Assembly: GCF_026210795.1 (NCBI RefSeq)
Contig: NC_089429.1
Coordinates: 7,316,001-7,380,000 of the forward strand
Length of the DNA: 64,000 nucleotides
Direction: 5' to 3'
Source: Rhizophagus irregularis
Lineage: Eukaryota
Numbering within the stretch: the first letter of the stretch is position 1; each line of letters begins with the position of its first letter. The notes under the pieces are model-generated. The model saw only the letters and a program-made list of their open reading frames with translations, did not search any database and was not told where the DNA came from. This document shows positions 1 to 50,200 of this stretch, one piece after another. A program made the position numbers and the translations under genes.

Positions 1-466
1 TACAAATTTACTTTATAAATTAACTTTATATGAAAAAATTATATATTTTTTTTTCTTTTTCTTTTCTTTTTTTTTCTTTTTTTTATGATACTATATTGTG
101 CCTACAATTGAATTGTCGTAACATTTTTGGATAAGGTACAGGAACTACTTTATCCATATGGCTTTCAGTTACAAAGGAAAGAATATGAACAGAAAAAAAT
201 TACAAAATATCAAAATATAGACATGAATACAAATGAATACAAATGAAAAAATGAATATGATAATATGAAATGAAAATTACAAACAATGAATGAAAAGTGC
301 AAAAAAATTACAAATGACACCAATCTATATAGGTTGATATTAAGATGCAAAGTATGTATATGCTATATATGCAAAAAATGAATGATTATACATGTTTCTA
401 AGTATATATAAATGAAATGAATTAAATGATTTATAATCCGCAAAATCTAAGAAATTCAACTCGACA

Positions 467-1144
467 TTATTGACCGCCACCTCCACGGTATGCTTCAGCT
501 TCACGTTTTTGGCCGCCACCTCCACGATACGGTTCAGCTTCACGTTTTTGACCGCCACCTCCACGGTATGGTTCAGCATCACGTTTGCCTGCTCCTCGGT
601 GTGGTTCTGCTTCAGCATCACGTTTTTGGCCGCCACCTCCACGGTATGGTTCAGCTTCACGTTTTTGGCCGCCACCTCCACGGTATGCTTCAGCTTCACG
701 TTTTTGGCCGCCTCCTCCACGGTATGCTTCAGCTTCACGTTTTTGACCGCCACCTCCACGGTATGCTTCAGCTTCACGTTTTTGGCCGCCTCCTCCACGG
801 TATGCTTCAGCTTCACGTTTTTGGCCGCCTCCTCCACGGTATGCTTCAGCTTCACGTTTTTGGCCGCCTCCTCCACGGTATGGATCAGCTTCACGTTTTT
901 GGCCGCCACCTCCACGGTATGCTTCAGCTTCACGTTTTTGGCCGCCACCTCCACGGTATGGGTCAGCTTCACGTTTTTGACCACCACCTCCACGGTATGG
1001 GTCAGCTTCACGTTTTTGACCGCCACCTCCACGGTATGGGTCAGCTTCTCGTTTCTGAAGGGCTACATTATCAAGTTGTAAGGGTGCGGATTGGACGGTG
1101 ATGATGATAGCGAGAAAAAGGAGAATTGCAAAAATGGGCTTCAT
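467..1144 (-). CDS. Secreted Kex2-processed repeat protein (KEP), an alpha-factor-like prepropeptide of 225 aa; predicted products 14x YRGGGGQ and 1x HRGAG
   Basis: ATG at 1144 begins a signal peptide (MKPIFAILLFLAIIITVQSA) and pro-region (PLQLDNVALQKR). Then come 15 cassettes separated by KR, with EA-DP, EA-EA, EA-EP, DA-EP or DA-EA-EP spacers. Stop TAA at 469-467. An in-frame ATG at 1195 is less likely as the start because it adds 17 polar residues ahead of the signal peptide. Confidence 0.93.
   Translation of the reverse strand: MKPIFAILLFLAIIITVQSAPLQLDNVALQKREADPYRGGGGQKREADPYRGGGGQKREADPYRGGGGQKREAEAYRGGGGQKREADPYRGGGGQKREAEAYRGGGGQKREAEAYRGGGGQKREAEAYRGGGGQKREAEAYRGGGGQKREAEAYRGGGGQKREAEPYRGGGGQKRDAEAEPHRGAGKRDAEPYRGGGGQKREAEPYRGGGGQKREAEAYRGGGGQ
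470..1048 (-). repeat. Coding tandem array of 39-bp units (15 units, the last one 33 bp)
   Basis: Period-39 repeat (cacgtttttg..ccgcc..ctccacggtatg..tcagctt) that coincides with the peptide cassettes; a GC-rich island in an AT-rich window. Confidence 0.97.
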
Positions 1145-1346
1145 GGTTTTGTAATTATATGATGAGGGTAAATTAAAGAGTGTACAAGTGGACATACTTG
1201 GCTGATTAATATCGTTTAGTATAATATAAAGGTGAACTCTTCCGGAGAGTATGTCACACTATGAATTATTTGTTTGGTAGATTGGTGTCGAAAAATTAAA
1301 GGAATGAGTTGGAGAAAAAATTTTTTTTAGCGATTTTCAGAGAGTA

Positions 1347-12958: not shown

Positions 12959-13854
12959 AAAATTCTTTTCCAAACTTACAAATATAGGATTTCCTCTAAA
13001 TATACAAAAAGAAGAAACTAAATCTATAATTCCAAATTCCAGAAGGCAACTACAAAAAAAGTTCCATCAGAATTCTCATTAATAAATTGTTGCATTTGGT
13101 GGTACTTTTTTTGATTTTATTACTTTTTTGAAAGGTAAAAAGGAGTTTTGCTGTGTAAATTTTGCTTTAAAATACTAACAAATCACAAATCTAATTACAT
13201 CACTAGAATAAATGAATAATATTTTTTATTTATCATGAGTAAAAATTATGGAAAAATAAAAAAAAAATTTAAAAAGTCCGTAACATACCAAGTTTACCAA
13301 GTATAGTTAGGCATCATACTATACTTATCGGTACGACAATATACTATATAATAATATAGTTAGTAGTTAAAAAGTGATCGCCTTCTTTTTAAAAATAGGT
13401 CTATAGCAAAAATCAGAAAAGCAAATTACTATTTAGTCTTTACTGCAAAGAAATTATCCTCATTTCATTAATGAAAAGCGCTTCAATATTATCAGTTATA
13501 ATGAGGTGTATATTCAACCGAGAGCAAATTAGAAATATTTATTCTAATACAATTATCAACAACATCAAATCATAATATAGATATTTGTAAACTCAGTTTA
13601 TATTAATAATATTGATTCATTTATTAATAAAGTGTTTCATAAATTTAGTGTAAATATTATTGTCGCTTAAACATTGTTTATTTCAAGAATATTTAAAATT
13701 TTTACCTTTATTGTTATTTTTTTATATATTGTTTACTTACTCCTTATTCCCGATACGACACAGATAAAGCAAAGCATACTAAGTGATACAATGGTGTTAC
13801 CACAAATTATATTTAAATTTGATTATTTTAGCTTTACTCCTAAAAATCTAAAAA

Positions 13855-16800
13855 ATGACTGTGTTGACAAATTTATTCTACTTTATCTTATTATTCATAA
13901 ATCCGTTGATTGTTTATTCTTATGATGTGATATTACATAATGAAACTGAACCTGGACTTAAAATCTATAAAGTACATACTTATAGAGATGGGATAGCGGT
14001 TGTCCATTTAGTTAAACCAATAAATGAATCTTGTATTGAACCACGAATTGATCTTCGCATTTTACATCCAAATGGTACTGTTGATAGTGCTAAAGTTGAT
14101 TATCCGATCCCGGAATATAATTTTTGTCGTGGTCCCAACGGATTTTATTGGTTCGACATGATCCGTTCCTTTCCAAGTTCTATAAATATACTTTATATAG
14201 ACATCGCTTCAGCAAGTTATTATGTATTATTTGCTACTCGAACGGGATATGTTATTAGGTTTGTTACACATCCATTATGTTTTAAGTATATACTACATAT
14301 GTATATTAACTTATTTATTGAAATTTTTATATTTGCAAGCAATACATACGTGGCACCTATCTCAATAATAAATGGAACTATATACGCCGACGGCTATCTC
14401 GTAACTCATACAAGCGAAGAGTGTGGTTTTATGTTTGTAAATTATGAAACTGAGACTATTGTAATGTGGAAGTATTTCAGTAAACCGTATGCACCATTAT
14501 TATTGATGTTTATTTTAATAGTATTAAAGTAAATATGAAAATTAATTCATTCTTTTTGATTTATTAGGGACGATAAAGGAAATTTTAGCCTAATAAATGA
14601 AGGAAAACATTATCTGCAAAATTCATTAGCTAATTATTTCGTATTTCCCTCAATTGATGGAAATTTTGGTATTGTAATTGTAAATTCAACAGATATCAAT
14701 ATAAACCCTAATGAATTCATCAATCCGTCTAAATTTACGTCTAAGGCTTATGTCACTTTTATTAAACCTGTTATGAAGAGTGTGGATGGCCCTTTCTTAA
14801 TTTACCAATCAGCGATACCTCATTTGGAAGTTCGAAGTTTTTGTGATACCGCTTTTGCGGGGATCGGTAATACTTGCCTTTTAATATTTAACAGAGTAGA
14901 AGATGAAAATACGTTAGAAGTTATAAAACTGTCATTTCAAGCTTCAGGGTTCGTTATATGTTATATGTTTATAATATTTCTTATAACTTTAATTACATGT
15001 CTAATGATTTGTTTTTTTTATTCTTAGTTCTGTATTTGATATGAGAAAACTTGGTGATAAATTTGTTGATGTAGATATAGTAACTTTTAATGGTTTATTT
15101 CACGGAGGATATTTAATAACTTTACGTGATAATCAACGTAAGACTATTGAAGGAATAATACTTGATAATGATGGAAAATATAATGGCACTTGGGGATTTC
15201 CACCAGGTTTGAAATCATCTGGTTCTTTTGGAGTGACAATCTTTCTAAATGGGACACTGCGTTTAGTTACTTTCGAGAATGAAATGACTTTGAAAATTTC
15301 TTTTACAACTTTACCTAAATTTTTCTCGGATGGTAAGCATAATATAAGTTGTTATATGCAAATAATATTTTTTAGTTAAATTAATTGTTTTTTATTTCCT
15401 TAGATTATGGATATGAGAATCCGCACATTAAATCAACTTATCCATCAATTAGCTCAAGTATACCCTTATCAATCACAAACATAAATATTACGTATCATTT
15501 GTCTGTAACGATATCAACCAACAACGTTTCAATTTATCAATATAATAATAATGACGGTCTTCCTATACTGCGTCAATCTGTCCCGGGAAATTCACCATAT
15601 TTTTCGTATAGTTCTGATAAAATGACAATAAGCATGAAAGTTTTGGGAAGCACATTTAATCAACCAAACTCAAATTATTATATTGTTGTTGATGGTAATG
15701 TGGTCAGGGATTGGACGTCAAATAATCCACTATTAGGTGTTGAAAGAAATCGTTGGAAATTTAATACAAGTAAGCATATTTTAATATCCGGATAAATTAT
15801 ACTAGTTCTTTAATAATATCAATTACAATTCCTTCAGTAAATATCCGAGATAATTTTGCAGGTAAAAAATGTTTTTTTAAAAAAAATTTATAATTAATTA
15901 AATTGATTTTATTCAATTTTAATAATTTTAATGTTTCATCATATTTAGAGGAATCAATTGGAAGATTTTCTTTAACGGAAGAAGGGACAAAATCTTTTGA
16001 GAAACTTTCATTGGATGGACAGAGAGAATTTTTATCACAATTAAGAATTGATTTATCAGAATCAATACCTGTCGACATTAATAGATTAGATTATGTAAAA
16101 TGTTGTGAATATGATAATAGCCAACAACCTCCAAGAATTCTTTTATCATTACCTATTAAATCGACAACAAATCCATATGAAAGAAATGTTGATCATATTA
16201 TAAAAGATTTAGATATTTTGATTAAACACAAAGAAGTAACTCCAATTTCATGGTTTGGTACAACAAATCATTTAGAAGCTAGCTTTGGATTTCAGAGATA
16301 TAGTAATTATAATTATTATTACAAGAATTTTCATTATTTAAATTTTAATTCTTTTTTTATTATTTAGAAAATTTATTGGATGATTTTAAGTTCCATTTAA
16401 TTGGTATTGTCCTTGGAATAGTAATTTTAGGATTCCTTTATATTTACGCCAAGAAGAAATATCCTATGGTAAAGTACTTCATATATCTTTTTATTATTAT
16501 TATCCGTAACTAATAATATATTACTTATATATAGGGTGAAAATATCGTAATATTTAAATTTCCCTTAATTATTTTGAATTTTATCATGGGTATTATGTTT
16601 ATTTTGAATAATGGAAAAAATGTTCCACAATTATTTATTCCAAGGTATGATCCATCTTCATTTTCAAAATTTTTTTTATATCAATTAAATTTTTAATTTT
16701 TGTAAAAAATTTTTAATTATAGCATAATTTTCTTCGTGATACCAATAATAATTAATTTTATTATGGCTGCAATTATAATGCTTCAAGAAATTAAAAAAAA

Positions 16801-17328
16801 CAGAGATTTCTATGGATGGTTTAAAAACAATGTTGATATGGCATCGTTATTTACCATATTATCTGGTACTAACCTTGAAATGTTAAATATACTTTCTTCT
16901 CAAGTTGCTGGTATAATGTTATTCAATGCTCCTATATCAGAAGAAACTCAATTTTATATTTTTTGGGGAAATTTTATTGGATTATTTATTGGTGATATCC
17001 CTCAATTTATTATTCAGGTTTGTAAAATTTTTAACATTATTATACATTATTATATTAAAACTAAATTCCATTGAATTTAAAATACATTTAGGTTTTCTAC
17101 ATAAAGTTGGTTGTTAATTATGATATAATTCCTTTTCTTACTCTATCAACAAGTTCGATTATTTTAGCGAATAATATAATTTCAAAAATATATCATGCTA
17201 TAGTACATTTATATTCAAAAAAAAGGAAATCTGTTATGATATTACAAACTGAAAAAATATTATGTAATGAAAATTCCAGTATTACAGTTCCACGAAAGAT
17301 AAGAAAAAATGTTAGATATTCAATGTAA
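13855..17328 (+). CDS. 11-exon receptor-like membrane protein (~900 aa) with signal peptide, large beta-rich ectodomain, Ig-like segment and about 5-6 C-terminal TM helices; paralog 1
   Basis: ORF fragments join through short GT-AG introns (e.g. 14259-14339 and 14487-14567, plus a 24-nt micro-exon at 15838-15861). Hydrophobic N-terminus, many N-x-S/T sequons and a YENPHIKSTYP...YYIVVDGNVVR...W.F.T Ig-like block. TM segments include LIGIVLGIVILGFLYIYA, IFFVIPIIINFIMAAIIML and FIGLFIGDIPQFIIQ. Exon structure is conserved with paralog 2. Confidence 0.88.
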
Positions 17329-17368: not shown

Positions 17369-18830
17369 CAGTTGGCTCGCGTTATAACGAATTTGGTGTC
17401 CATGCTGATCTGACCTTCGTTATGGAAAAATTCGGTAACACTATAACGGATTTTTTGACATCCATATAGCAAAATTCGGAATATTGTATAACGAATTTTT
17501 ATTAAAAATTCGTTAAATATTTTAAAGTAAATTTATGTAAATAAATGTAAATTATAATATATTTATATTATTTATTATTAAATGTAATACAATTATTATA
17601 TTATATATTGTAAACATTAATGAAATTAAGAGATATTAATAAAATCATTAAGATTCGTTTGTCTCACAGAAATAAAACGTTGTTTTAACGCTTCCTTCCT
17701 AAGTTTTTTAATGCATCTTATTTCTTCTTTTTTCATATCAAATTTATCCTCTTGTTGCTCTAAATACAAAATCACCTTATCATAATGTTCAATGGCCTCG
17801 CTATGAGTAATGGATGGTAAAGGATCAGAATTTAGTTCTTCTACCTCTTGTTCATGATTATTGGGAAGAACTACTTTCAAAATTTCTTCATTGGATATCA
17901 TTTCTGCTGTAAGTTCAGATTTATCACATTGAATAAATTCATCAGCAGTTAAAGGATTTTCAAGATTAAGTTTATCAATTAAATCTTGAACTTCTTTCAA
18001 CTCATTTGTATGTGTTAGAAGAACTTGTGTTTCAGCACAGAAATCCATATCAATTTCACTTTCATTATCTTTAGGTAAAATATCTGCTTTTAACCAGCAA
18101 TTTTCAATAGTAGATTGAGTAAGTGCATGTGACATATTTGATGCACTTTTTGATATTAATTTCAACAGGGTTAATGTCAAATTCATTATAATTATCAAAG
18201 GCTTTAACATGATTTCACAATAATAATTTTCGGTATTGTGCCTGAAATAAAATTAAATTTTTTATAGTTAATAAAAGGATTTGAAATTACTAAAATATAA
18301 GGTGTAGATTTAAAGTTAAAGTATGAATTCAACTACCTTGAAACTGTTAATGATCCCTTGATCACATGGCTGGAAGTGTAAAGTGGTATTTGGAGGAAAA
18401 AATACAATTTTAATATTAGTTAATTTTATATTTTCATTGAGAGAATGAGTTGGTGCATTATCAACAAGAAGAATGATATTTCAGTTCTGTGCTCTCATTT
18501 GAGCATCAAGCCTTTTAAGATATGCATTCCAGATCAATACTTGCATCCAACTTTTTGAATTCCAATAATAATTTATTGGAAGAGTAGTTTTGTTAATATT
18601 TTTTAGAGCCCAGGGATTTTCATATTTGTGTATGAATAAGGAGCGTAACTTTTTAGTTCCAGTTGCGTTACAAGTAAATAAGACCGTTATACGATCCTTA
18701 GATTGTTTCGTTCCAGTCACAGGACCATTAGATATGGTGTGATTGGGTCGCATTTCCAAAAAAAACCTGTCTCATCACAGTTAAAAATATCATTGGAATC
18801 ATAATTTTTTAGAATTTGGCAAAAATTTTC
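17369..18830 (-). mobile_element. pogo/Tigger (DDE_1) transposon relic inserted 40 bp after the paralog 1 stop codon
   Basis: TIR ta|cagttggctcgcgttataacgaa. Minus-strand motifs DIFNCDETG, KQSKDRITVLFTCNATG, ILLVDNAPTH and PPNTTLHFQPCDQGIINSFK, with an intron at ~18243-18336. Frameshift and stop present; the 5' half and second TIR were not found. Confidence 0.9.
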
Positions 18831-20450
18831 ACGCATTATGTCAAGTTCTGCAAGTGGTGCACTTGCCGCTTCTCCATGCATATTATACAAAATTTCAAAC
18901 TGTGTTACACAAGGGATGTAATTCCGGCCAGAATTATAACTTGGCAGGATTTATGCCGATCACATTTAATTCTGGCCAGAATTATCAAATATATACGAAT
19001 CGGTTATTCAGTTTCAATCAGATTTTGCAAAATTAGTTTGAAATGGATTGAACCGGTTGCGCCCATTTTAAATTTGGTTTTCGAAAATAGAACCGGTTCC
19101 AAACTCTATTCTGTATATAATTTTAATAAACTGAAATTCTGCACAAAAATCATAAATTTTTTTCTTCAAAGTTTGATAGTATATCTTAAGATTTGTGTAG
19201 AAAAATTAATTTGCAAATCTGAAGATTCTAAAAATTTTCTGATAGCTTAATATTAATTTTATACAGAAGTTTGTATATTTCATTAGTAAATCTATTAACA
19301 ATTCCAAACTGATAAATTAATAAAAATGCTAACTATATAACTTAGGTAGATTTAGATTAAATCATAAAAATCTTGACATAAGTTTTATTTATGTAATAAT
19401 TGATTTCTATTGAAAGTAAAATTAATTATTAAAACTACTGAAATTTCTATTTAAATTACTATTATTTATAAATTTACCTCAAATTCATTAATATTTGAGT
19501 CAGTAAGTATATCTTTATTAGTATCCAAAATTAATTTTGAACAGTCCAAAATTATCCAATTAAAAAAACTAATTGGACATAATACTGGCTAACTGGAATT
19601 TCAAAATATAAAAGTTTAGTGTAATTATTCAAAAAAAAGATATTTCTTAAATTTGTGATAGTATAAACTAAGATAAGTTCTTTTTAAACTACTGTATATT
19701 AAATCCTATATAATTAAAATAGTATTCAGTTTTCTAGTTAAGATTAATATCTAGATCTTCTTTAATTTCTAACTTCAAGTAAAAATACAAAAAAAAATAA
19801 AAAAAAATAAAAAATACTAATCACAAAAATTTTAACTTAAATAATAAATATATTAATAAATATTAATTATAATAAATTTTTAAAATCATATCCGCCAATT
19901 TGCAAAATTTGCCGATCATCAGTTATGTGACGCAGTATTGATTAAAATCGATCAAAACCCGTTTCTACATAAGAAAAAATGTCAAAAAATATATAAAAAA
20001 ACTTTTAAGACCTCTCCCAAAATATTTACCTCTTTAACCCGAAACTAATAGAAGGAATTTCTAGAAAAAAAGGAAAAAAATATTATAAAGTTAGTTTATT
20101 AAAAAAAATAAAGAAAAACTTTATAAAATCCAGAATATTTAATGATTTAACAAAAAAAAATTAACTGAAAAATAATTAATAATAAATATCAAATAGATTT
20201 TAATTAAATAATTAATCAATATATAATCTAAATTCGCTAAAACATCATTATTAATATTTAGAGTTATTTATTGATTGAAAGATTTTTTTGAATAATTTTG
20301 CTTTTTAAATAAATTTTTTCATAAAGGGTATAAAAAAATAAAAAACAGGCTTGAAGTTGTATCAATATTGTTATTAATCGACATTAAAAGCGGACTGAAA
20401 AACTTTAACGCTTTAATAGATTAACTGGAATTTAACTTAATAGAAGAGTC

Positions 20451-29471: not shown

Positions 29472-32400
29472 GATCCTAAATTACCTAACGGTTAAGTAGG
29501 TCATTACTTGACTTAAGTAACAATATTACACCAATTTACCTAATGATAAAATAACGATATATCAACATAGCATATTTTTTTATATTATTTTCACGCTATT
29601 TTATTTTATTTAGTTATAATATGATAGAAAGTATTATTTCGTATATATATATGTATTTTTACTCAAGATCCTCCCGAATTCCTCGTTATTATAAATAATA
29701 GCAAAAAGATATATTTATTTGTTCTAAATCAAAATTCAGTTGATTTAAACAGTATTTAAATATGAAATTCTTGTTATTTGAATTACAAAAAATAAAAATA
29801 AATCAAAACTTTGATTTAATAATTGATAAAATTGTTCCTATGAAAGAAAAGAAGATAAAACTTGTTTAGTAAGTTTCAATTTATATTATAAACAATAAAA
29901 TCTAAACAAATACAAATATGCCGAAATTTATTGTTAGTTTTTTATTAAAAAGAAGAATGTAAAAAGAGAAAAGGATGCAAAAAATATAAGAATATAAAAA
30001 AAAAACGAAATTACAGCAACTTGAAATTTTAATTTTAAAAATTACGCAGTTCTACTGCATCTAAAATGAAAATAGTATACAGTAGTATGAAAAAAATAAA
30101 AATAAAAATAGAAATAAAATCGCAGAAAACGCAAAAAGAAATCTCAACAACTTGATTTAACTAAAACATCATTTATATATTTATTTTATTATTTTATTTA
30201 ACATGGATTTATATTTTATACAGTAGCCGTTTATACAAAAAAGGAGAAAAAAATTAACTTGAATAGAAAAAAAAGTTCTAAAAAAAGGTAAAGATTTATT
30301 CAGAAGTTTATTATTACAATATGTAAATTATAACAATGCACAATGCATCACCTTGTTAATAATATACTGTAATTATGTTCGGAACTCGAAACTCGGAAGG
30401 ATAATGTCTAACCGTCCGTTCATATGATTGTTGCGTCATAGACTTATTTTTAAAAGATAAGAAAAGACGCGGATTAAAGTTAGGATAAGAATTAGCTTAG
30501 AAATAAGTTAAAAAAAAATCTCTTTCTTTGCAAATATTAATATCCTTGATAAAGTAATTTAGCAAGAAGGGTTTTGAATTACGTATTTGTTAAGCATTTT
30601 GCCGATCACTAATAATAAAAAAGCATTATAATATGTTAATTTTTAAACAATTTATTTTTATAAAGTTTTATAAAGAATATTTAAAATTTTACCCTTATTA
30701 TTATTTTTAAAATTTTTTTGACTATTGTTTACTAGAATACGATTTATAAGTTACACAGTAAGTATTACTATAAGTATACTAATAAGTAAGAATTACACTT
30801 GTGTTACCACAAATTATATTTAAATTTGATTATTTTAGCTTTACTTCCCTAAAAAATGAATTTGTTGGGGATAAATTTATTCTACTCTATCCTTTTATTC
30901 ATAAGTCCGTTGACTGTTTATTCTTATAATGTGATACCATATAATGAAACTGAACCTGGACTTGAAGTCTATAAAGTATTTTCTTATAGAGATGAAACAG
31001 CGGTTATCCTTTTAATTAAACCAATAAATGAATCTTGTGTTGAACCACGAATTGATCTTCGCATTTTACATCCAAATGGTACTATTGATAGTGCTAAAGT
31101 TGATTATCCGATCCCAGAATATAATTTTTGTCTTGGACCCAATGGATTTTATTGGTTTGATATTACCCGTTCCCTTCCAAAATTTCTACTTGTGCTTTAT
31201 GCAGATATCGTTTCAGCAAGTTATTATGTATTAGTTATTACTCGGACAGGATATGTTATTAGGTTTGTTACGCTATGATGTTTTATACTGCATATGAATT
31301 TTAACTTATCAAAATTTTTTATATTGGCAAGCAATACACCCGTGGCACCTATCTCTATAATAAATGGAAGTATATATGCCGATGGCTATCTCATGTCGCA
31401 TACAAGCGAAGAATATGGTTTTATTTTTGCAAATTATGAAACTGAAACTGCTGTAATGTGGAAGTACTACAATAAACCGTATGTACCATCATTATTATTG
31501 TTTATTTCAATAATATTAAAGTAAATATGAAAATTAATTCATTCTTTTTGGTTTATTAGGGACGATAAAGGAAATATTAGTCTAATAAATGAAGGAAAAC
31601 ATTATCTGCAAAATCCATTTAATTATTATTTCATATTTCCCGCACTTGATGGAAATTTTGGTATTATAATTGCAAATTCAACAGATATTAATATAAAACC
31701 AGAACCTAATAAATTCATCAATCCATCTAAATTTACGTCTAAGGTTTATGTGTCTTTTATTAAACCTGTTATGAATAGTGTAGATGGCCCTTACTTAATT
31801 TACCAATCAACAATACCTCATTTTGAAGTGGATTTCTTTTGTGATACGGCTTTTACAGGGATTGGTAATATGTGTATTTTGACATTCAACAGAGCAGAAG
31901 ATAAAAATACGACCGAATATATGACTGTGTTATTTCAAACTTCGGGGTTCGTTATATGTTTATAATATTTCTTAAAACCTTAATTATATGTCTAATGATT
32001 GTTTTTTTTTATTCTTAGTTCTGTATTTGATATGAGAAAGCTTTTTGTTGATAAAGAAATAATAGGTGTTAATAGTTTATTTCAAGGAGGATATTTAATA
32101 ACTACACATGATGATCAAAATAAAACTATTGAAGGAATAATACTTGATGATAATGGAAAATATAATGGCACTTGGAGTTATCCACCAGATTTAAATGTAT
32201 CTAATTCTTTTGGAACGGCAGCCTTTCGAAACGGGACACTGTTCTTAGTTACTTTCGAAAATGAAATGACTTGGAAAGTTATATCTACACCTTTACCTAA
32301 ATTCTTCTCGGATGGTAAGCATAAATAAGTTGTTATATATTAATTATTTTTAGTCAAATTAATCTTACTTTATTTCTTTAGATTATGGATACGAAAATCC

Positions 32401-35209
32401 GAATATTAAATCGACTTATCCATTAATTAGCTCAAGTATACCCTTATCAATCACAAACATAAATATTACGTATCATTTGTCTGTAACGATATCAACCAAC
32501 AACGTTTCAATTTATCAATATAATAATAATGACGATCTTCCTATACTGCGTCAATCTGTTTCAGGAGATTCACTATATTTCTCGTATAGTAGTTCTGATA
32601 AAAAGACAATAAACATAAAAGTTTTGCAAAGTACATTTAATCAACCAAACTCAAATTATTATATTGTTGTTAATGATAACGTGGTCAGGGATTGGACGTC
32701 AAATAATCCACTAATAGGTGTTGAAAGAAATCGTTGGAAATTTAATACAAGTAAGTAAGCATATTTTAATATCCGGATAAATTATACTAGTTCTTTATTA
32801 ATATCAATTACAATTCCTTTTATTTAGTAAATATCCAAGATAATTTTGCAGGTAAAAAAATGTTTTTTTATAAAAAATATTATAATTAATTAAATTGATT
32901 TTATTCAATTTTAATAATTTTAATGTTTCATCATATTTAGAGGAATCAATTGGAAGATTTTCTTTAACGGATGAAGGAACAAAATCTTTTGAGAAACTTT
33001 CATTGGATAGTCAGAGAGGATTTTTATCACAATTAAGAATTGATTTAGCAAAATCAATACCTGTCGACATTAATAGATTAGATTATATAAAATGTTGTGA
33101 ATATGATAATAGCAAACAACCTCCAAGAATTCTTTTATCATTACCTATTAAATCGACGACAAATCCATATGAAAGAAATGTTGATCATATTATAAAAGAT
33201 TTAGATATTTTGATTAAAAACAAAGAAGTAACTCCAATTTCATGGTTTGGTACAACAAATCATTTAGAAGCTAGCTTTGGATTTCAGAGATATAGTAATT
33301 ATAATTATTATTATAAAGAATTTTCATTATTTGAATTTTAATTCTTTTTTTATTATTTAGAAAATTTATTGGATGATTTTAAGTTCCATTTAATTGGTAT
33401 TGTTATTGGAATAGTAATTTTAGGATTCCTTTATATTTACGCCAAGAAGAAATATCCCATGGTAAAGTACTTTATATATCTTTTTTTATTATTATTATCC
33501 GTAACTAATAATATATTACTTATTTATAGGGTAAAAATATCGTAATATTTAAATTTCCCTTAATTATTTTGAATTTTATCATGGGTATTATGTTTATTTT
33601 GAATAATGGAAAAAATGTTCCACAATTATTTATTCCAAGGTATGATCCATCTTCATTTTCAAAATTTTTTTTTATGCCAATTAAATTTTTAATTTTTTGT
33701 AAAAAATTTTAATTATAGCGTAATTTTCTGCGTGATACCAATAATAATTAATTTTATTATGGGTGCAATTATAATGCTTCAAGAAATTAAAAAAAACAGA
33801 GATTTCTATGGATGGTTTAAAAACAATGTTGATATGGCATCATTATTTACCATATTATCTGGTACTAATATTGAAATGTTAAATATACTTTCTTCTCAAG
33901 TTGCTGGTATAATTTTATTCAATGCTCCTATATCAGAAGAAACTCAATTTGATATTTTTTGGGGAAGTTTTATCGGATTATTTATTGGTGATATCCCTCG
34001 ATTTATTATTCAGGTTTGTAAAAATTTTAACATTATTATATTAAAACCATTATTAAATTAAAACTAAAATCCCATTGAATTTTAGGTTTTCTACATAAAG
34101 TTAGTTGTTAATTATGATATAATTCCTTTTCTTACTCTATCAACAAGTTCGATTATTTTAGCGAATAATATAATTACAAAAATATATCATGCAATAGTAC
34201 ATTTATATTCAAAAAAAAGGAAATTTGTTATGATATTACAAACTGAAAAGATATTATGTAATTCAGCAAATGAAAATTCCAGTATTACAGTTCCACAAAA
34301 GATAAGAAAAACTGTTAGGCATTCAATGTAAATAATATTTCAATAAAATAAAATAATCATTATAATAAATAATATAAAAACATATAATTTAAATAAATTT
34401 TCAAAAATTAAATTTTTTTTTTTTATTTATAATGAGTTATCTTCATTAAAAATTTTTTAACAAATTTTTTATTATAAAGTTACATTATATTTACATTCCA
34501 AGTTTTAAGCTTTATTTTTTAATGGTGTATAGAAAAAAAAAAGAAAAAAAGAAATCTTAGATTGACAATTTCATGTTTTAAAAAAAAAAAGATTTCTTAA
34601 AATTTTGAATTTGTTTTTCAATTATTATTAACTTTGTTAAAATTTTATTAAAGATTAAATTTCAAGTTCAAAACCAACTAAAGTGTCAAATTACACTATA
34701 AAATTTCAGTTATTATATTGAAAAAAGTTTTGTAATGAATCATATTGTAATGAATCAATTTATATATAAAAGAATAATTACAAATTTGCTATTTTATTTT
34801 TTTTTGAATTATATCAAAATTTTTTTTTCTTTATAATTTTACTTTATTTATGAAAACAATTTATAAATAAAAAAAAAAATTTTTAAATTTTTATTTTTTG
34901 TAATTTAAATAACAAGAATTTCATATTTAAATACTGTTTAAATGTTTAAATCAACTGAATTTTGATTTAGAACAAATAAATATATCATTTTGCTATTATT
35001 TATAACAACGAGGAATTCAGGAGGATCTTGAGTAAAAATACTAAATAATACTTTCTATCATATATAACTAAATAAAATAAAATAGCGTAAAAATAATATA
35101 AAAAAATATGCTATGTTGATATATCGTTATTTTATTATTAGGTAAATTGGTGTAATATTGTTACTTAAGTCAAGTAATGACCTACTTAACCATTAGGTAA
35201 TTTAGGATC
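29472..35209. mobile_element. 5.7-kb unit with ~330-bp TIRs and TTAA flanks, enclosing a complete host gene
   Basis: 29472-~29799 (gatcctaaattacctaacggttaagtaggtcattacttgacttaagtaac...) is the reverse complement of ~34887-35209. TTAA at 29468-29471 and 35210-35213; GA...TC termini; no transposase inside. Confidence 0.8.
30856..34331 (+). CDS. 11-exon receptor-like membrane protein, paralog 2
   Basis: Colinear with 13855-17328, with the same intron positions and micro-exon. ATG at 30856 and TAA at 34329-34331; no disabling lesion noticed by eye. Confidence 0.88.
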
Positions 35210-37199: not shown

Positions 37200-39850
37200 T
37201 TTTCCATAGGGGAACTGGATTTACGTAAACATTTTGTGAACCGTTCGATTGTTAAAACTTTGAAATGGTCGAATGTAATATTTCTTTTAATTACCTTAAT
37301 GAGTATAACCTTTGTGAAGAATTCTTTTCTCTATTATATCAACAACATACTGGAGTCTCTCTTGATATTTTGAAAGGTATTTTTTATTCAAGGAAGAAAT
37401 GGATCTATAAGCCTTTAACATATTTACTTTCAGAATTGCGGCCATGGCAGTTGAGTTGAAAAACTCATTTATTTGTTTTTTTTGAAAAAGAGATGATTTT
37501 AATGAGTAATATTGAAATTGAAAACATGGACCTTTCAAATAACGACATTCCTATTACTTTCGATAAACGTTGATGATATTTGATATTGGAGAATTCAAAA
37601 TATAAATGGATAATAAACCTAAATATCTACCATATTATTGTGGTATGGTGCGTAAAGTTGTTGTAACTCCTACTACAAGTTATATTTTAACTCCAACCAT
37701 GGAAACTTAATAGGGTGATCCGTTATTTTCGTCATAAGAAAGATCATTTTTTACGTGTCCAATTTGTAGATGAGGCTTTGAGTAAAGTTGGTTCATCTAA
37801 TGATGATACTTCTAACCATGCTTTATGACAGAGTTTATTGTACTTTACGTGATGGTATCATTATTGGTGATAAGCACTACGAATTCTTGGCTTTCTCTGC
37901 TAGTCAATTAAGAGATCATAGTTGTTGGTTTTTTCACCAACTGGCGATTTAACTGCCGATAAGGTTAGAGATTGGATGGGAAATTTTTTAACAAATAAAA
38001 GTGTAGCAAAATGTGCTGCCCGAATGGATCAGTGTTTTTCAAGTACTCGTCAAAAGCTACCTGTTGATGACATTAAAGAAATGCCCGATATAGTTAGAAA
38101 TGGTTTCACTTTTTCTGATGGGGTAGGGAATATCTCTTTTTCATTAGCAAAGAAGATTGCTTATTAATTGGATTAAGGGTGTTTTATGTCAGCCAGCTTG
38201 TGTTGGAAGTTATCAGAGGTTCTACATTCATCTCAGCATATCTCAATCGTCAGGCGATTATATTATTGTCCGCATTAGGAACTCCTGATGAAGTATTTAT
38301 TGAATTAAAAGATTTACGAGTTAGGGAATTGGATAAAATGCTTGAAAGTGAACATACGGCATTGGATTTTCTACAAAGGTATGTTGATGAATATGGAATT
38401 TCAATCTCACTTGCTGATCTTGTTAAAGCAGGATTTTTAAGAAATAATCATCGTTATTTGATTTATTTGATGAATTTTATTTCATTATTTGATGTTAGGA
38501 GACATTAAGAAAAGGCAAAAATTCGCGTTGATAAAGTACGCGTCTTGGATGTTACCGAAATTTTACAGGAGAATCAAATTTATTGCTAGAAGTGGTGATT
38601 TAGATGGTGATGATTTCACGTATGTTATCTTTACTTTAAGTATTTAAGTTTTTTAAGTTATTAACAATTTTTTTTTTTTTGGAAAAAAAGATAATCACTT
38701 ATTGATCTTGTTAAAGCGGGATTTTTAAGAAATAATGATCGTTATTTATGAATTTTATTTCATTATTTCGTATCATGATGTTAGGAGGAGACATTTAAGA
38801 AAAAGGCAAAAATTCGCGTTGATAAAGAGGCATTCTTATTAGGCGCCTTGGATGTTGCCGAAATTTTACAAGAGAATCAAATTTATTGTTAGCGGTGGCG
38901 ATTAGATGGTGATGATTTCACGTGTGTATCTTTATTTCTCATTTTTTAAAATTTTAAGTATTTAAGTTGTTTAAGTTATTGACAATTTTTTTTTTAGAAA
39001 AAAAAAAGATAATCACTTGTTGATCTTGTTAAAGCGGAAATAATGATTCATTATTTGATGTTAGGAGACATTAAGAAAAGTCAAAAATTCGCGTTGATAA
39101 AGGGGCATTCTTATTAGGCGTCTTGGATGTTACCGAAATTTTACAGGAGAATCAAATTTATTGTTATTTAGATGATGATTTCACGAATGTATCTTTATTT
39201 ATATTGTTAAAACTTTTTAAAAAGTTTTAAGTTGTTTAAGTTATTGACAATTTTTAATTTAGTGTACTATGAATTATGAGGCTCAAAAATCAAGAATGGT
39301 TGAAAATGTAACGATGAAAGATATCAAAACATTTTTCGTAAATTATATCTTTTCCGACAACTTTGGTATGATCGAGAACGCTCATTAGCAAAAGCAGATT
39401 TTTTCAAAGTTGGTGCATTACATAGGCAATGTAAACGTCTTGTACAATTACATTCTGACGCCATAGATTTCCTAAAACGGGAACACCATCAGAATTTCCA
39501 CCTGTATTTCGTGCTAGTAAATTCACAGATTTTATGGAAAAATTGATAAACAATCTTATGAATCTCAAAAAAGTTCTTGGCATTTTATAGAGTATACCCG
39601 CAAATTATTTTAAATATAGAAACTTTTGATCAAAGAATATATGTTGATGGGATGATGCACGAAAGTTAAGACGAGAGTACAATGCAAACATAAGAGGATT
39701 AATGAAATTGAAGTAACTAATGGATACATTATGAATACTATTGTTACAAAAGTTGATAAAGAAACCTCGCAATGTAACAAAATCTGTGATGGAAGATGGA
39801 ATCTTTAATTCCAATTAATGACATTATAGAAAATCATTTGAACAAGAATT
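37200..39850 (+). pseudogene. Cellular RNA-dependent RNA polymerase (RNAi-type, QDE-1/SAD-1/RDR family) pseudogene
   Basis: Motifs RKVVVTPT, RVIRYF, FLRVQFVDE, HYEFLAFSASQLRDHS, WMGNF, KCAARMDQCFSST, FSDGVGNIS, AYLNRQAIILLS and catalytic SGDLDGDDF (38591-38617). Stops, frameshifts and internal deletions throughout. The 5' boundary is approximate. Confidence 0.93.
38405..39260 (+). repeat. Three ~290-bp tandem copies of the RdRP segment that ends in the DLDGD motif and the following intron
   Basis: gatcttgttaaagc...aaaattcgcgttgataaag...gagaatcaaatttattg...gatgatttcacg recurs at ~38416, ~38704 and ~39022. Confidence 0.9.
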
Positions 39851-46959: not shown

Positions 46960-47265
46960 TTAAATGTACAAGATTATATATTGTAAATCTTTTAATAAAT
47001 GCGAAAAAATATCAATATTCAGATTTGCTTTTACCTCGAAAAAAAAAACCGATTGGCCCGGTTTTTGGCCATCGGTATTTCTTCCATAAGAGCATTTATA
47101 CTGCTCTTGCTCCTCTTCCGATAATAGCCGCCAAATTCTTGAGGCGGCCTTTGCGTTTATATGAAAATGTTCCGCCAGATCACGACGGAACAGTATGAAG
47201 CAATTAGGTTGCTTCCTATGTTTATATGGATCAAACTTTACAATTTTGATCCTTTTTTTTTTCAT
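46960..47265 (-). CDS. Short MATA/SOX-type HMG-box protein (about 101 aa; C-terminus may be truncated or frameshifted)
   Basis: HRKQPNCFILFRRD...AASRIWRLLSEEEQEQYK matches the sequence-specific HMG pattern RPxNxFIL(F/Y)R...S..W..L..EE+..Y. ATG at 47265 with a basic N-terminus (MKKKRIK) and a TATA-like tract at ~47301-47312. Confidence 0.75.
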   Translation of the reverse strand: MKKKRIKIVKFDPYKHRKQPNCFILFRRDLAEHFHINAKAASRIWRLLSEEEQEQYKCSYGRNTDGQKPGQSVFFFEVKANLNIDIFSHLLKDLQYIILYI

Positions 47266-50200
47266 TTTTAAATTGAAGAAACCCACTCACAACCCACTCA
47301 TATTTATATATATTTTCATCTATACAATAGTCAACCTTTTAAATACATATTTGTAGTAATATTTGAGACACGAAATTTATTGATTATATAAAGTTTATAG
47401 TAATAATAATATAAAGTTAAATTTAAATTTAATAAAAGTCATTGATAAAGGAGTGTTGTATAATTTTGGTAATATATATTTGAGTATATAAGAACAATAT
47501 ACCTTTCTTAATAAACTCGAATGTAAACAAATATGGATCTATATCAGTCAATTAATAAATTACCATATATAATATAAGATTTATATTATTATAAATACAG
47601 TAATTGTTTTCGTTTAAGTATTAAAATTGAATGGTACATGTAAAATATATTAAATATTTGAAAGTTTGTTGTAAAATATGTGCTTGGAATTACAAAATCT
47701 TAATAAAAACCTATATAAGAAATTCTATTAGAATTTTGTATATAATTCTATACTAGGAAAATTGAAACAATTTTTGGTATTACAAAATTTTGAATGACGT
47801 GATACTAATACAAATGCGGTGAGATATTGCGCTTTGAAGCGTCTTTGATTAGATGATAAAAATAACTTTCCCGGCTTATCCAAAAGATTCTTGAAAACAT
47901 TTTATTTTTTATCGATAAAATAAATACACGATATTATAAACGTAGTCTTTATCATAAAAACATTACGATGATGAAAACCATCTGTGAAGATCATCACGAT
48001 CACGGATCACCCAATGAAGTTTTGTAATACTCATCAATAACGATTATAAGTATATATTCAGTTTAATGAAAAGATCTGCATATACATTTTTGGGATTAAA
48101 TTTTCTTTAACCGCAACTTCTTTTATTAAGCCTGTCTGCTATGAATGTAAATAATATACTCCGATATTTATTTTATGTACCACGCGAGTGTTTCAAAAAA
48201 ATTTAAATATATTTTTATTATTCCTACTAAAAAAGTTATCGTATGAAAGTTCAAACCCGAGAATGTTTGGATTTTTATTCACATTCCTAATCTCGCTTAT
48301 AATTATCATTAGTTGTTATTGTTCTGACCTTTGTCTTTTTGTTAAATAAAAGTAATTCTAAAATTATTATTATATCACGTATTAAAAAAATCGAAAAGAG
48401 TTAAATCATGTCTCCCTATTACACTTTTTTAATACAAAAGCGGTGCATAATCTCCGAATAGAATTTAGTACAAGATATGGCATCCGAGTATTCAAATATT
48501 CAAATCGGAAAAGTCAGAAATTAATAAATGCCATAATTAGATAATAGATACACGTATCTTGATTAATTTATAGAAATTTATATTGGATTAGTATTATCCA
48601 CATGGAATTTCTCTTTCCTTTTTTTATATTAATACTAATAATTACATAATCATAAAATTTATAAAAAAATTTCAATTATTATTATAAAAAATTCTAATAT
48701 TAATCAAGCAGACAATTAATTTCTTTTTTAATTTTATCAGAATTTCATAAAAGGAAAAATCAATAAAATCAATTAATAATACTTTACCGAGCGAATATTT
48801 TAACAAATTTTGATAACGTGGCTCAATTTTGCCCCTTGATTTGTTTGACTCACATTTCTAAGGTAAGGTATAAAAGCGATTTATGTGCTTCTGTAATTTG
48901 AGTAGAGCTTGATTTACTAATATTTTTAAATCGATTACTGTATCATGATGATGTGAGATATTTTGACCTTATATTTTAATCGAAAAATAAACCCGCAGTC
49001 AACAATGTTTGTCACGTGAGCATGTATAATAATTTTAATACATAGTAACATAGATGACATGATAACAAATAATAATTTATTAATGGTACAAAAAATTCTT
49101 CATTGAATATGATTTGCATTCTAAAACTGGAAACAATGAAAAAACTATGAAATTGCTTATTTTGTCAGCTTAATACTTATTTTCCCCTTCAAACATACAA
49201 TATCTGAATAAAATCTGGACCTTACATATTTTGAAGGGATTTCATTTCTTTAAATGGATTAAAGAAAATTTTTAATTATTAAATACACTATGTTTCAGTT
49301 TTGTTTATCAATTACTAACAAAATTGGTTTGTTTGAACTGACAGAAAAAGTAATTTATTAAAGAAAATAATTAATATCGTACATTCAATGTTTGGGTACA
49401 TTCTGAAAGACTAGTTTTGGAGGTGCAACATCGTAATGTGTGTTAGTTGATAGTTTTAAAATTTAATATTTTAATTCCATGTATTTCTCGTCCAAATCCT
49501 AGCCGACTGTAGTGTTATATTTGTTGCTACAGGTGCAGTATCAATAAGTCCGCTAGTCCTCGTTGCGAAATTGTATTCTAAATTTCTTTAGATATTATGA
49601 TAGAAATTAACCAAATATAACCTCCATCCGACCATCCGTACATATATATTTTGGCATATCTGCATAGATTAGTCGAATATTTGCGTTACGTTACGTACGT
49701 CGTGTCACTGCATAATTGACTGTGTTTCAGTTAAATTAATTCCGTCAAAAAATTTGCACTCCTTTTTAAATTTTTAAATAAGTTAATTGTTAGAAAAGTA
49801 CGCCTTATCCCATATCGACATTTTCATGTACAATAATAAACCTGAGAATTTTCAGGTTTATTGCGCAAAAAAATTAATGTCGTACAACAAGGTCACGAAT
49901 TTCTTGATCTACGAGTTGTAACTGTGGCTTTATTTCTTGTTAAATGTGGCGAAATTCCCGATATCGGAACGATTATAAAAAACAATTATCGCATCTTTTG
50001 TAGAGATTTCATAACATAAGAATTTATATTAAAATTATACGATAGATACATACAGTATGTTTGTACTTTTGAAATTGTCAAATATTTTGATACCCAAAAA
50101 AAAAGGGAAGAGTTACTTTTTATCCCTATCTTTATTTCTACTGTTTATCGGCCGGATGTTACGTTTTAATATGTACCCATGAGTAAAAGGGTCAGTATCC

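Follow-up and report, generated by a model that had tools for sequence, protein, structure and literature searches.

Kex2-processed repeat proteins (KEPs) of fungi are the closest described systems to the locus reported here. Le Marquer et al. (2019, PMC6339444) described 12 KEPs in Rhizophagus irregularis, mostly Tyr-rich and with yeast-like STE13 signatures, and already raised sexuality, peptide hormone, effector and RiPP cyclisation as ideas for KEPs. Table S1b of the same paper does not place R. irregularis among the 15 species lacking KEX1, KEX2 or STE13, where presence was judged by a loose BLAST test (E 0.001). KEPs of the YGY type were described in R. irregularis by Kamel et al. (2017, PMC5293756). 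According to Umemura (2020, PMC7329392), the majority of KEP cores do not extend beyond a single genus. Vogt et al. (2022, PMC9769878) found that the KEPs of mushrooms give linear, minimally modified peptides, with signs that STE13 trims them; knockouts of six KEPs showed no axenic phenotype, which these authors took to mean that KEPs act in biotic interactions. For AM fungi, a STE3-like receptor and no peptide pheromone genes were reported (Halary et al. 2013, PMC3834313), and no pheromone gene was induced upon co-inoculation (Mateus et al. 2020, PMC7490403).

The locus described here lies in a 64,000-nt stretch of R. irregularis DNA, referred to below as the window. We know of no established peptide pheromone or hormone of AM fungi themselves, though a pheromone-response pathway has been reported in them. 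While the KEP class in this species is already published, what is added here is a full-length gene, its specific peptide and an apparently undescribed core family that extends across two phyla.

Precursor and repeat array

The precursor N-terminus, MKPIFAILLFLAIIITVQS, is followed by the pro-region APLQLDNVALQ and then by 15 KR-led cassettes; cut at each KR, the sequence falls into a leader of 30 residues and the cassettes (Table 1). After removal of X-Ala/X-Pro dipeptides the core is YRGGGGQ in 14 of the 15 cassettes and HRGAG in cassette 12. The spacers consist entirely of such dipeptides in all 15 cases (EA-DP in four, EA-EA in seven, EA-EP in two, DA-EP in one and DA-EA-EP in one), and the final cassette carries Q directly before the stop codon, without KR. 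An earlier note on this DNA had read exactly this layout, from the signal-like start and short pro-region to the 14 copies of YRGGGGQ and the last Gln at the stop, and the alpha-factor-type precursor design that it proposed holds for every spacer. The array is the best of 52 tandem-repeat rows in the window (TRF: period 39, 15.0 copies, score 891). Its cassette pattern gives 13 matches in the window and none in 100 shuffles, and nowhere else in the 64,000 nt do at least two KR-[ED]-[AP] units share one frame. An opposite-strand ORF at 490-1101 was read as a shadow of the repeat and set aside.

Table 1. Features of the precursor gene and its transcript, in window coordinates
Feature	Position	Strand	Basis or remark
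Precursor CDS, predicted Kex2-processed repeat protein, 225 aa	467..1144	-	Translation and parsing
N-terminal extension, in frame, 17 codons from the first ATG of the transcript	1145..1195	-	Possible 242-aa form
Predicted signal peptide, residues 1-19	1088..1144	-	Hydrophobicity; cleavage after VQS predicted by the -3/-1 rule
Pro-region APLQLDNVALQ	1055..1087	-	Identical in paralogue PKC09209
15-cassette array, 39 bp each (KR, X-A/X-P spacer, core)	470..1054	-	Parsing, TRF
Variant cassette 12, KR-DA-EA-EP-HRGAG	587..625	-	Parsing
5' untranslated region	1196..1296	-	RNA read ends
3' untranslated region	301..466	-	Main end near 301-302; weaker longer form to at least 200
Putative TATA box TATATAAA	1347..1354	-	52 bases upstream of inferred start site

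A single hydrophobic stretch is present, at residues 3-18, with an 11-residue mean of up to 3.5, and the repeats beyond it are hydrophilic. The signal cleavage pattern in the precursor is V-Q-S/A-P. Judged from hydrophobicity and this pattern, the N-terminus is signal-like and is predicted to be a signal peptide. The precursor has the features of a KEP, namely a predicted signal, no further membrane segment, near-identical motifs separated by KR, and expression (see below); it also carries the STE13 signature, with X-Ala/X-Pro between KR and core in all 15 spacers. At E 0.1 it matches no Pfam family, including MF_alpha and MF_alpha_N, and its core has neither W nor C. The first ATG within the transcript lies in frame at 1195 and adds 17 residues to the N-terminus. 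Comparable extensions precede the signal in three relatives (P0005, P0049 and P0104), and these together make a longer form plausible; the precursor may thus be 242 aa rather than 225 aa long. Neither this ATG nor the cross-phylum core family was noticed in the earlier note.

Constraint on core and spacers

Core codons are variable at four sites, Tyr and three Gly, among the 14 standard copies (the synonymous-site count excludes cassette 12), and the changes are synonymous at all four. Under simple neutral models, with 27-30% synonymous changes expected and the four sites treated as independent, the probability of this is about 0.005-0.008. Amino-acid variation in the spacers is found at three positions (E/D, D/E and A/P) and always retains an acidic residue followed by Ala or Pro. 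The three cores of one metagenome relative (L049) likewise differ synonymously only. Because the core changes only synonymously and the spacers change only within the rule, both the peptide and the trimming grammar appear to be maintained, which argues that YRGGGGQ and its spacers are under constraint.

Gene models and paralogue in R. irregularis

A shorter-length protein search returned three R. irregularis proteins, U9U5S3, PKC09209 and CAB4389715. U9U5S3 (DAOM 197198, 74 aa, uncharacterised) has 47 residues identical to the precursor, followed by the last two cassettes of the window. Its tail, YTYFAS, is read from window positions 360-340, within the 3' untranslated region, after an AG; this requires an intron from 474 to 363, which is absent from the RNA reads. 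From the identical residues, the last two cassettes and the tail read from the untranslated region together, U9U5S3 is judged to be the same gene as that in the window, with 3 cassettes instead of 15. The glomeromycotan host that the earlier note had entertained as a condition is hence borne out, with the same gene annotated in R. irregularis DAOM 197198. We infer that the short array of U9U5S3 comes from a collapsed assembly, a strain difference being possible, and its tail is probably a false splice. As public models can shrink arrays in this way (3 versus 15 copies), the lists of KEPs drawn up for AM fungi probably fall short of the full set.

PKC09209 is a Rhizophagus paralogue with the same pro-region and the core GGYRGGAAQ, and CAB4389715 is a degenerate relative in R. 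irregularis. PKC09209 does not occur among the 30 of 92 R. irregularis rows of the PMC7329392 table that were available here. The window gene may itself be one of the 12 KEPs of PMC6339444.

Transcription

Three polyA RNA-seq runs, from two samples of one study and read to about a quarter each, place 3,565, 6,088 and 4,934 of 11.05 million reads on positions 200-1600. The transcript spans about 301-1295 and is abundant, at about 324-554 reads per kb per million, and no intron-type joint in the precursor gene is listed among the RNA reads; the expression on which the earlier note had made its reading depend is therefore seen. RNA molecules often start or stop at 1287-1296 and at 301-302, and depth is zero from 1328. 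Contigs of another run (X1, from another study and only guessed to be RNA) span the same interval and are likewise absent from 1328. The strand of the transcript was assigned from the ORF because the RNA library is unstranded. Over the array (482-1045) the reads lie about twice as deep as over the unique flanks, a difference that GC bias, a paralogue or a larger number of cassettes in the sequenced strain could account for.

Genomic surroundings

The window has 18-36% GC, and its surroundings fit a fungal chromosome. In 47 of its 67 ORFs of 70 aa or more, a Pfam scan matched part of a DDE_1 transposase, parts of an RdRP and, weakly, an HMG box; it matched neither DUF3328 nor tyrosinase. The gene lies at the window edge, so that only one flank falls within the window, and 466 bases of the downstream flank were covered. 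The weak HMG-box fragment lies 46 kb from the gene (46960-47286, reverse strand; E 0.007-0.01, under the Pfam cut-off) and is possibly MATA-HMG-like; beyond it, nothing of MAT type was recognised in the window. Genes of the MATA-HMG-like kind are many in R. irregularis.

A large multi-exon gene without a Pfam family is present in two similar copies (13852-17328 and 30853-34331, both on the forward strand); each begins in a signal-like manner, continues as a long probable ectodomain and has hydrophobic segments at the C-terminus. By eye these copies are receptor-like, but genes of this kind are common in AM fungi, and we do not connect them with the peptide. Pieces of a eukaryotic RNA-dependent RNA polymerase (PF05183) at 37922-39546 on the forward strand occupy several frames, either as exons or as a decayed copy, while DDE_1 transposase fragments (pogo/Tc5-like) at 17626-18950 on the reverse strand are broken across frames.

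Related cores in Geoglossomycetes and other relatives

A single-sequence search gave one match among 7,995 candidates, a Trichoglossum hirsutum protein. An exhaustive search gave 105 matches, which were sifted by a script filter with 15 proteins read by eye and were mostly Gly-rich or repeat-period artefacts; a six-sequence profile search gave 10. No SP7-named proteins are among the matches of the single-sequence, shorter-length and profile searches. The SP7-like effectors of R. irregularis have long imperfect hydrophilic repeats and a nuclear localisation signal.

T. hirsutum and Geoglossum umbratile are earth-tongues of two genera of Geoglossomycetes (Ascomycota). The predicted cores of T. 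hirsutum KAI9858257 are GGYRGGAIQ, EVYRGAGGQ, HRGGALQ and five copies of YRYSGSQ. GGYRGGAIQ agrees with GGYRGGAAQ of the R. irregularis paralogue PKC09209 at 8 of 9 positions. In Geoglossum umbratile M1839_008554 the predicted cores are YRGGGAQ, HRFSASQ, YRYSGSQ, FRFSASQ, GNRFSSIT and DNRYSGIT. Three further relatives (P0019, P0108 and P0109) carry YRFSGSQ, YRFSASQ, YRYSGSQ and YRNSASQ behind a signal that resembles that of the window precursor, and P0019 matches U9U5S3 at 47% over 72 residues. P0049 has a leader that matches the window family and the core GNRFSNVT. A second core type, [GDS]-[NR]-R/F-...-IT/VT, is found in P0049, P0077 and P0110 (GNRFSNVT, GNRFSSIT, DNRYSGIT and SRFGNIT) and is common to the relative with the window-like leader and to the Geoglossomycetes precursors. 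Five more proteins (P0058, P0066, P0075, P0100 and P0111) were taken as other KEPs and not counted as family. They are unannotated fungal-type KEPs with STE13 spacers, and cores in this group include NSTRAGQ (Lophiostoma macrostomum), VRGNQ, FGNNW and KKGYGS.

How often such resemblances arise by chance was estimated roughly and post hoc, with residue frequencies from 14 unrelated cores only. Per core, the 8/9 match has a probability of 1e-7, YRYSGSQ one of 1.4e-8 and the 6/7 match of YRGGGGQ to Geoglossomycetes cores one of 9e-6. Over the 6,278 repeat sub-types of PMC7329392, about 0.0007, 0.0001 and 0.06 chance matches would be expected, respectively. A Gly-rich heptapeptide is low in information, and the family claim therefore rests on the paralogue and on the co-occurring cores. 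These three matches lie within one T. hirsutum precursor and recur in a second genus, so that common descent, transfer or convergence towards a single target is more likely than chance as the source of the cross-phylum cores. The signal and pro-regions align weakly between Glomeromycotina and Geoglossomycetes, which counts against common descent and leaves room for convergence.

Metagenome loci

Metagenomes were searched with a DNA pattern that leaves the middle positions free; cores that carry Gly-Gly extensions or follow non-acidic spacers escape it. Of the loci matched, 8 of 50 in metagenomes held repeated cassettes, against none of 46 in prokaryotes and neither of 2 in viruses. The eight have 26-31% GC, fall into three locus types and have core middles that are all of the F/Y/I-S/P-G/A-S type; cores at these AT-rich loci include YRFSGSQ, YRYSGSQ and YRFPASQ. 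From GC content and signal sequence, we infer that the organism behind them is a glomeromycotan relative. One locus type is intact (L011, L021 and L049), and the YRFPASQ type is without a visible leader (L016 and L019). In L001 (1444-1790), L003 and L009 the array changes frame after the second cassette; the same change in three separate assemblies indicates a real frameshifted copy. Together with the degenerate CAB4389715, these frameshifted relatives indicate that the gene can be lost.

Intronless AT-rich ORFs flank two of the arrays (L001:2503-5375 and L016:2937-3479) and encode an orphan of 443 aa, a SWIRM-domain protein and a member of the phosphodiesterase family. A giant-virus origin of these loci, suggested by the intronless flanking ORFs, found no support: viral contigs gave only two non-repeat matches to the cassette pattern. 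P0019 and the L001 phosphodiesterase gave no viral relatives; the one weak match of another L001 ORF lay in a different frame and inside a ribonucleotide-reductase-like ORF recognised by eye, and PHROGs and the Atlas gave nothing usable on viral origin. A bacterial source was rejected, with all 46 prokaryote pattern matches single and non-repeated.

Proposed processing and function

By analogy with alpha-factor biochemistry, the precursor would enter the secretory pathway and Kex2 would cut after each KR. Ste13 would strip the EA, DA, EP and DP dipeptides and halt at Y-R, because the second residue there is neither Ala nor Pro, and Kex1 would trim KR from the released units. Each chain would yield 14 linear, unmodified YRGGGGQ peptides (693.32 Da) and one HRGAG. 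We consider this predicted route to 14 linear YRGGGGQ peptides highly probable. The peptide would then diffuse and bind to a conserved target in the host plant or in other microbes. Our preferred reading, held tentatively, is that YRGGGGQ is a diffusible signal acting on a conserved target in the living surroundings of the fungus and not a mate-specific pheromone. The [YH]-R...Q frame is fixed across phyla, which a conserved receptor fits better than mate discrimination, and, as most KEP cores belong to one genus (PMC7329392), a core family found in Glomeromycotina as well as Geoglossomycetes suggests that the target is conserved. The weakest step is the suggestion that YRGGGGQ may be a receptor ligand whose target holds the [YH]-R-x-x-x-x-Q frame in both groups. 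Rather unlikely, though worth stating, is the bolder proposal that YRGGGGQ belongs to an undescribed [YHF]-R-x-x-x-x-Q hormone family, kept or horizontally shared, with one receptor for AM fungi and earth-tongues; this shared receptor would belong either to the plant, at the symbiotic interface, or to fungi, as an ancient GPCR. Were this true, fungi of two phyla would share a peptide signal, and communication in AM fungi could be approached with a molecule that is cheap to synthesise. To our knowledge, AM fungi have no stable transformation. Since an abundant, constrained seven-residue product can be synthesised and applied, signalling is testable without genetics.

A pheromone by which the AM fungus tells self from non-self or finds a mate, recognised, as alpha-factor is, by a fungal GPCR, would explain why the precursor design equals that of MF-alpha and would supply a ligand for the putative pheromone-response pathway of R. 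irregularis, which has no known peptide ligand in the accounts at hand (PMC3834313, PMC7490403). An MF_alpha cluster at rank 5 in an Atlas feature search (score 0.79) is a lead only. Against these stand the lack of an MF_alpha Pfam match and of the Trp or Cys of alpha-type pheromones, the single receptor reported in AM fungi, which is STE3-like and of the a-factor type (PMC3834313), and the window, in which no MAT-type gene was recognised apart from the distant HMG-box fragment. With 12 KEPs in R. irregularis (PMC6339444), any single one is unlikely as the pheromone. The cores are moreover common to two phyla. Mating pheromones usually diverge between lineages. Core conservation thus weakens the mating reading of the earlier note, and we regard a pheromone as unlikely. 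The high transcript level and the Tyr, Gln and Gly composition would also suit a structural or surface peptide, either cross-linked through Tyr or Gln or coating the wall or symbiotic interface like the repeats of Ustilago Rep1 and Laccaria MiSSP8, and other KEPs of the species are Tyr-rich, for example the YGY repeats of RiSP357, RiSP618 and RiSP734 (PMC5293756). However, Rep1 is without STE13 spacers (PMC6339444), and a defined N-terminus produced by exact trimming together with an invariant core exceeds the needs of a bulk material. The peptide is also small and hydrophilic, and a structural role ranks slightly below a pheromone in our estimate.

The KR and X-A/X-P grammar is not specific to pheromones; precursors of insect antimicrobials, apidaecin among them, follow it too. 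One Rhizophagus KEP type has an Apidaecin profile match (PMC7329392), and Arg and Gln are nitrogen-rich, so a receptor-free antimicrobial, metal-binding or nitrogen-carrying small peptide was considered. Against this, YRGGGGQ has a net charge of only about +1 and no Pro-Arg run, amphipathic helix or His/Cys cluster, and its conservation by position across phyla suggests recognition; this role is slightly less probable again than a structural one. The earlier note had also named a RiPP precursor. Cyclisation has been raised for R. irregularis KEPs (PMC6339444), and Tyr, the first core residue, could close a ring of the dikaritin type (ustiloxin/phomopsin). This part of the note fared poorly: the one flank within the window has no DUF3328 or tyrosinase match in the ORFs scanned, DUF3328 proteins near KEPs went undetected outside two phyla, and the 30 of 92 R. 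irregularis rows available have no entry under DUF3328 (both PMC7329392). Cyclic-peptide precursors, like Rep1, are described as without STE13 spacers (PMC6339444), and a cyclised product is very improbable here. The diffusible signal on a conserved target remains our preferred reading.

Comparison with known systems

The earlier note did not recognise the peptide, and a full-text search, in which figures and most subscription journals are not covered, likewise found no paper with YRGGGGQ, RGGGGQ or six family cores; the string YRGGGG occurs in 7 unrelated papers. The available text and supplement of PMC5293756, including its RiSP table, contain no YRGG, RGGGG or MKPIF string, and one supplement to an R. 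clarus effector paper gives no match. Within this scope the peptide is absent from print and the family apparently undescribed. The novelty of the idea was overstated in the earlier note, as the KEP class and the pheromone, hormone, effector and RiPP ideas had been published (PMC6339444).

With Saccharomyces MF-alpha1/2 and the ascomycete alpha-type precursors, the window precursor shares a signal, a pro-region, KR, X-A/X-P spacers and a last copy at the stop codon. It differs from MF-alpha in having no sequence family match, no Trp or Cys and a very short pro-region, and no Ste2-type receptor is reported in AM fungi in the available part of PMC3834313. KR-separated repeats and a core-initial Tyr are shared with the dikaritin precursors UstA and PhomA, from which the window precursor differs in its STE13 spacers and in having no DUF3328 or tyrosinase neighbour among the 47 of 67 window ORFs. 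Closer to hand are the STE13-type KEPs of the same species (RiSP357, RiSP618, RiSP734, RiSP193 and RiSP260), which also have a signal peptide, KR-led repeats, EA/DA/EP spacers and short Tyr-led cores; their leaders begin MQLKH... and their cores are YGY and others, in contrast to the MKPIF... leader and YRGGGGQ core found here. The database models U9U5S3 and PKC09209 have no function annotated. The unannotated KEPs of Geoglossomycetes (KAI9858257, KAH0566257 and M1839_008554) belong to another phylum, mix several cores in one precursor and have longer, dissimilar signal and pro-regions, yet they share the [YHF]-R-x-x-x-x-Q frame with Rhizophagus, and their second core, GNRFSSIT, resembles GNRFSNVT of the window-like relative P0049.
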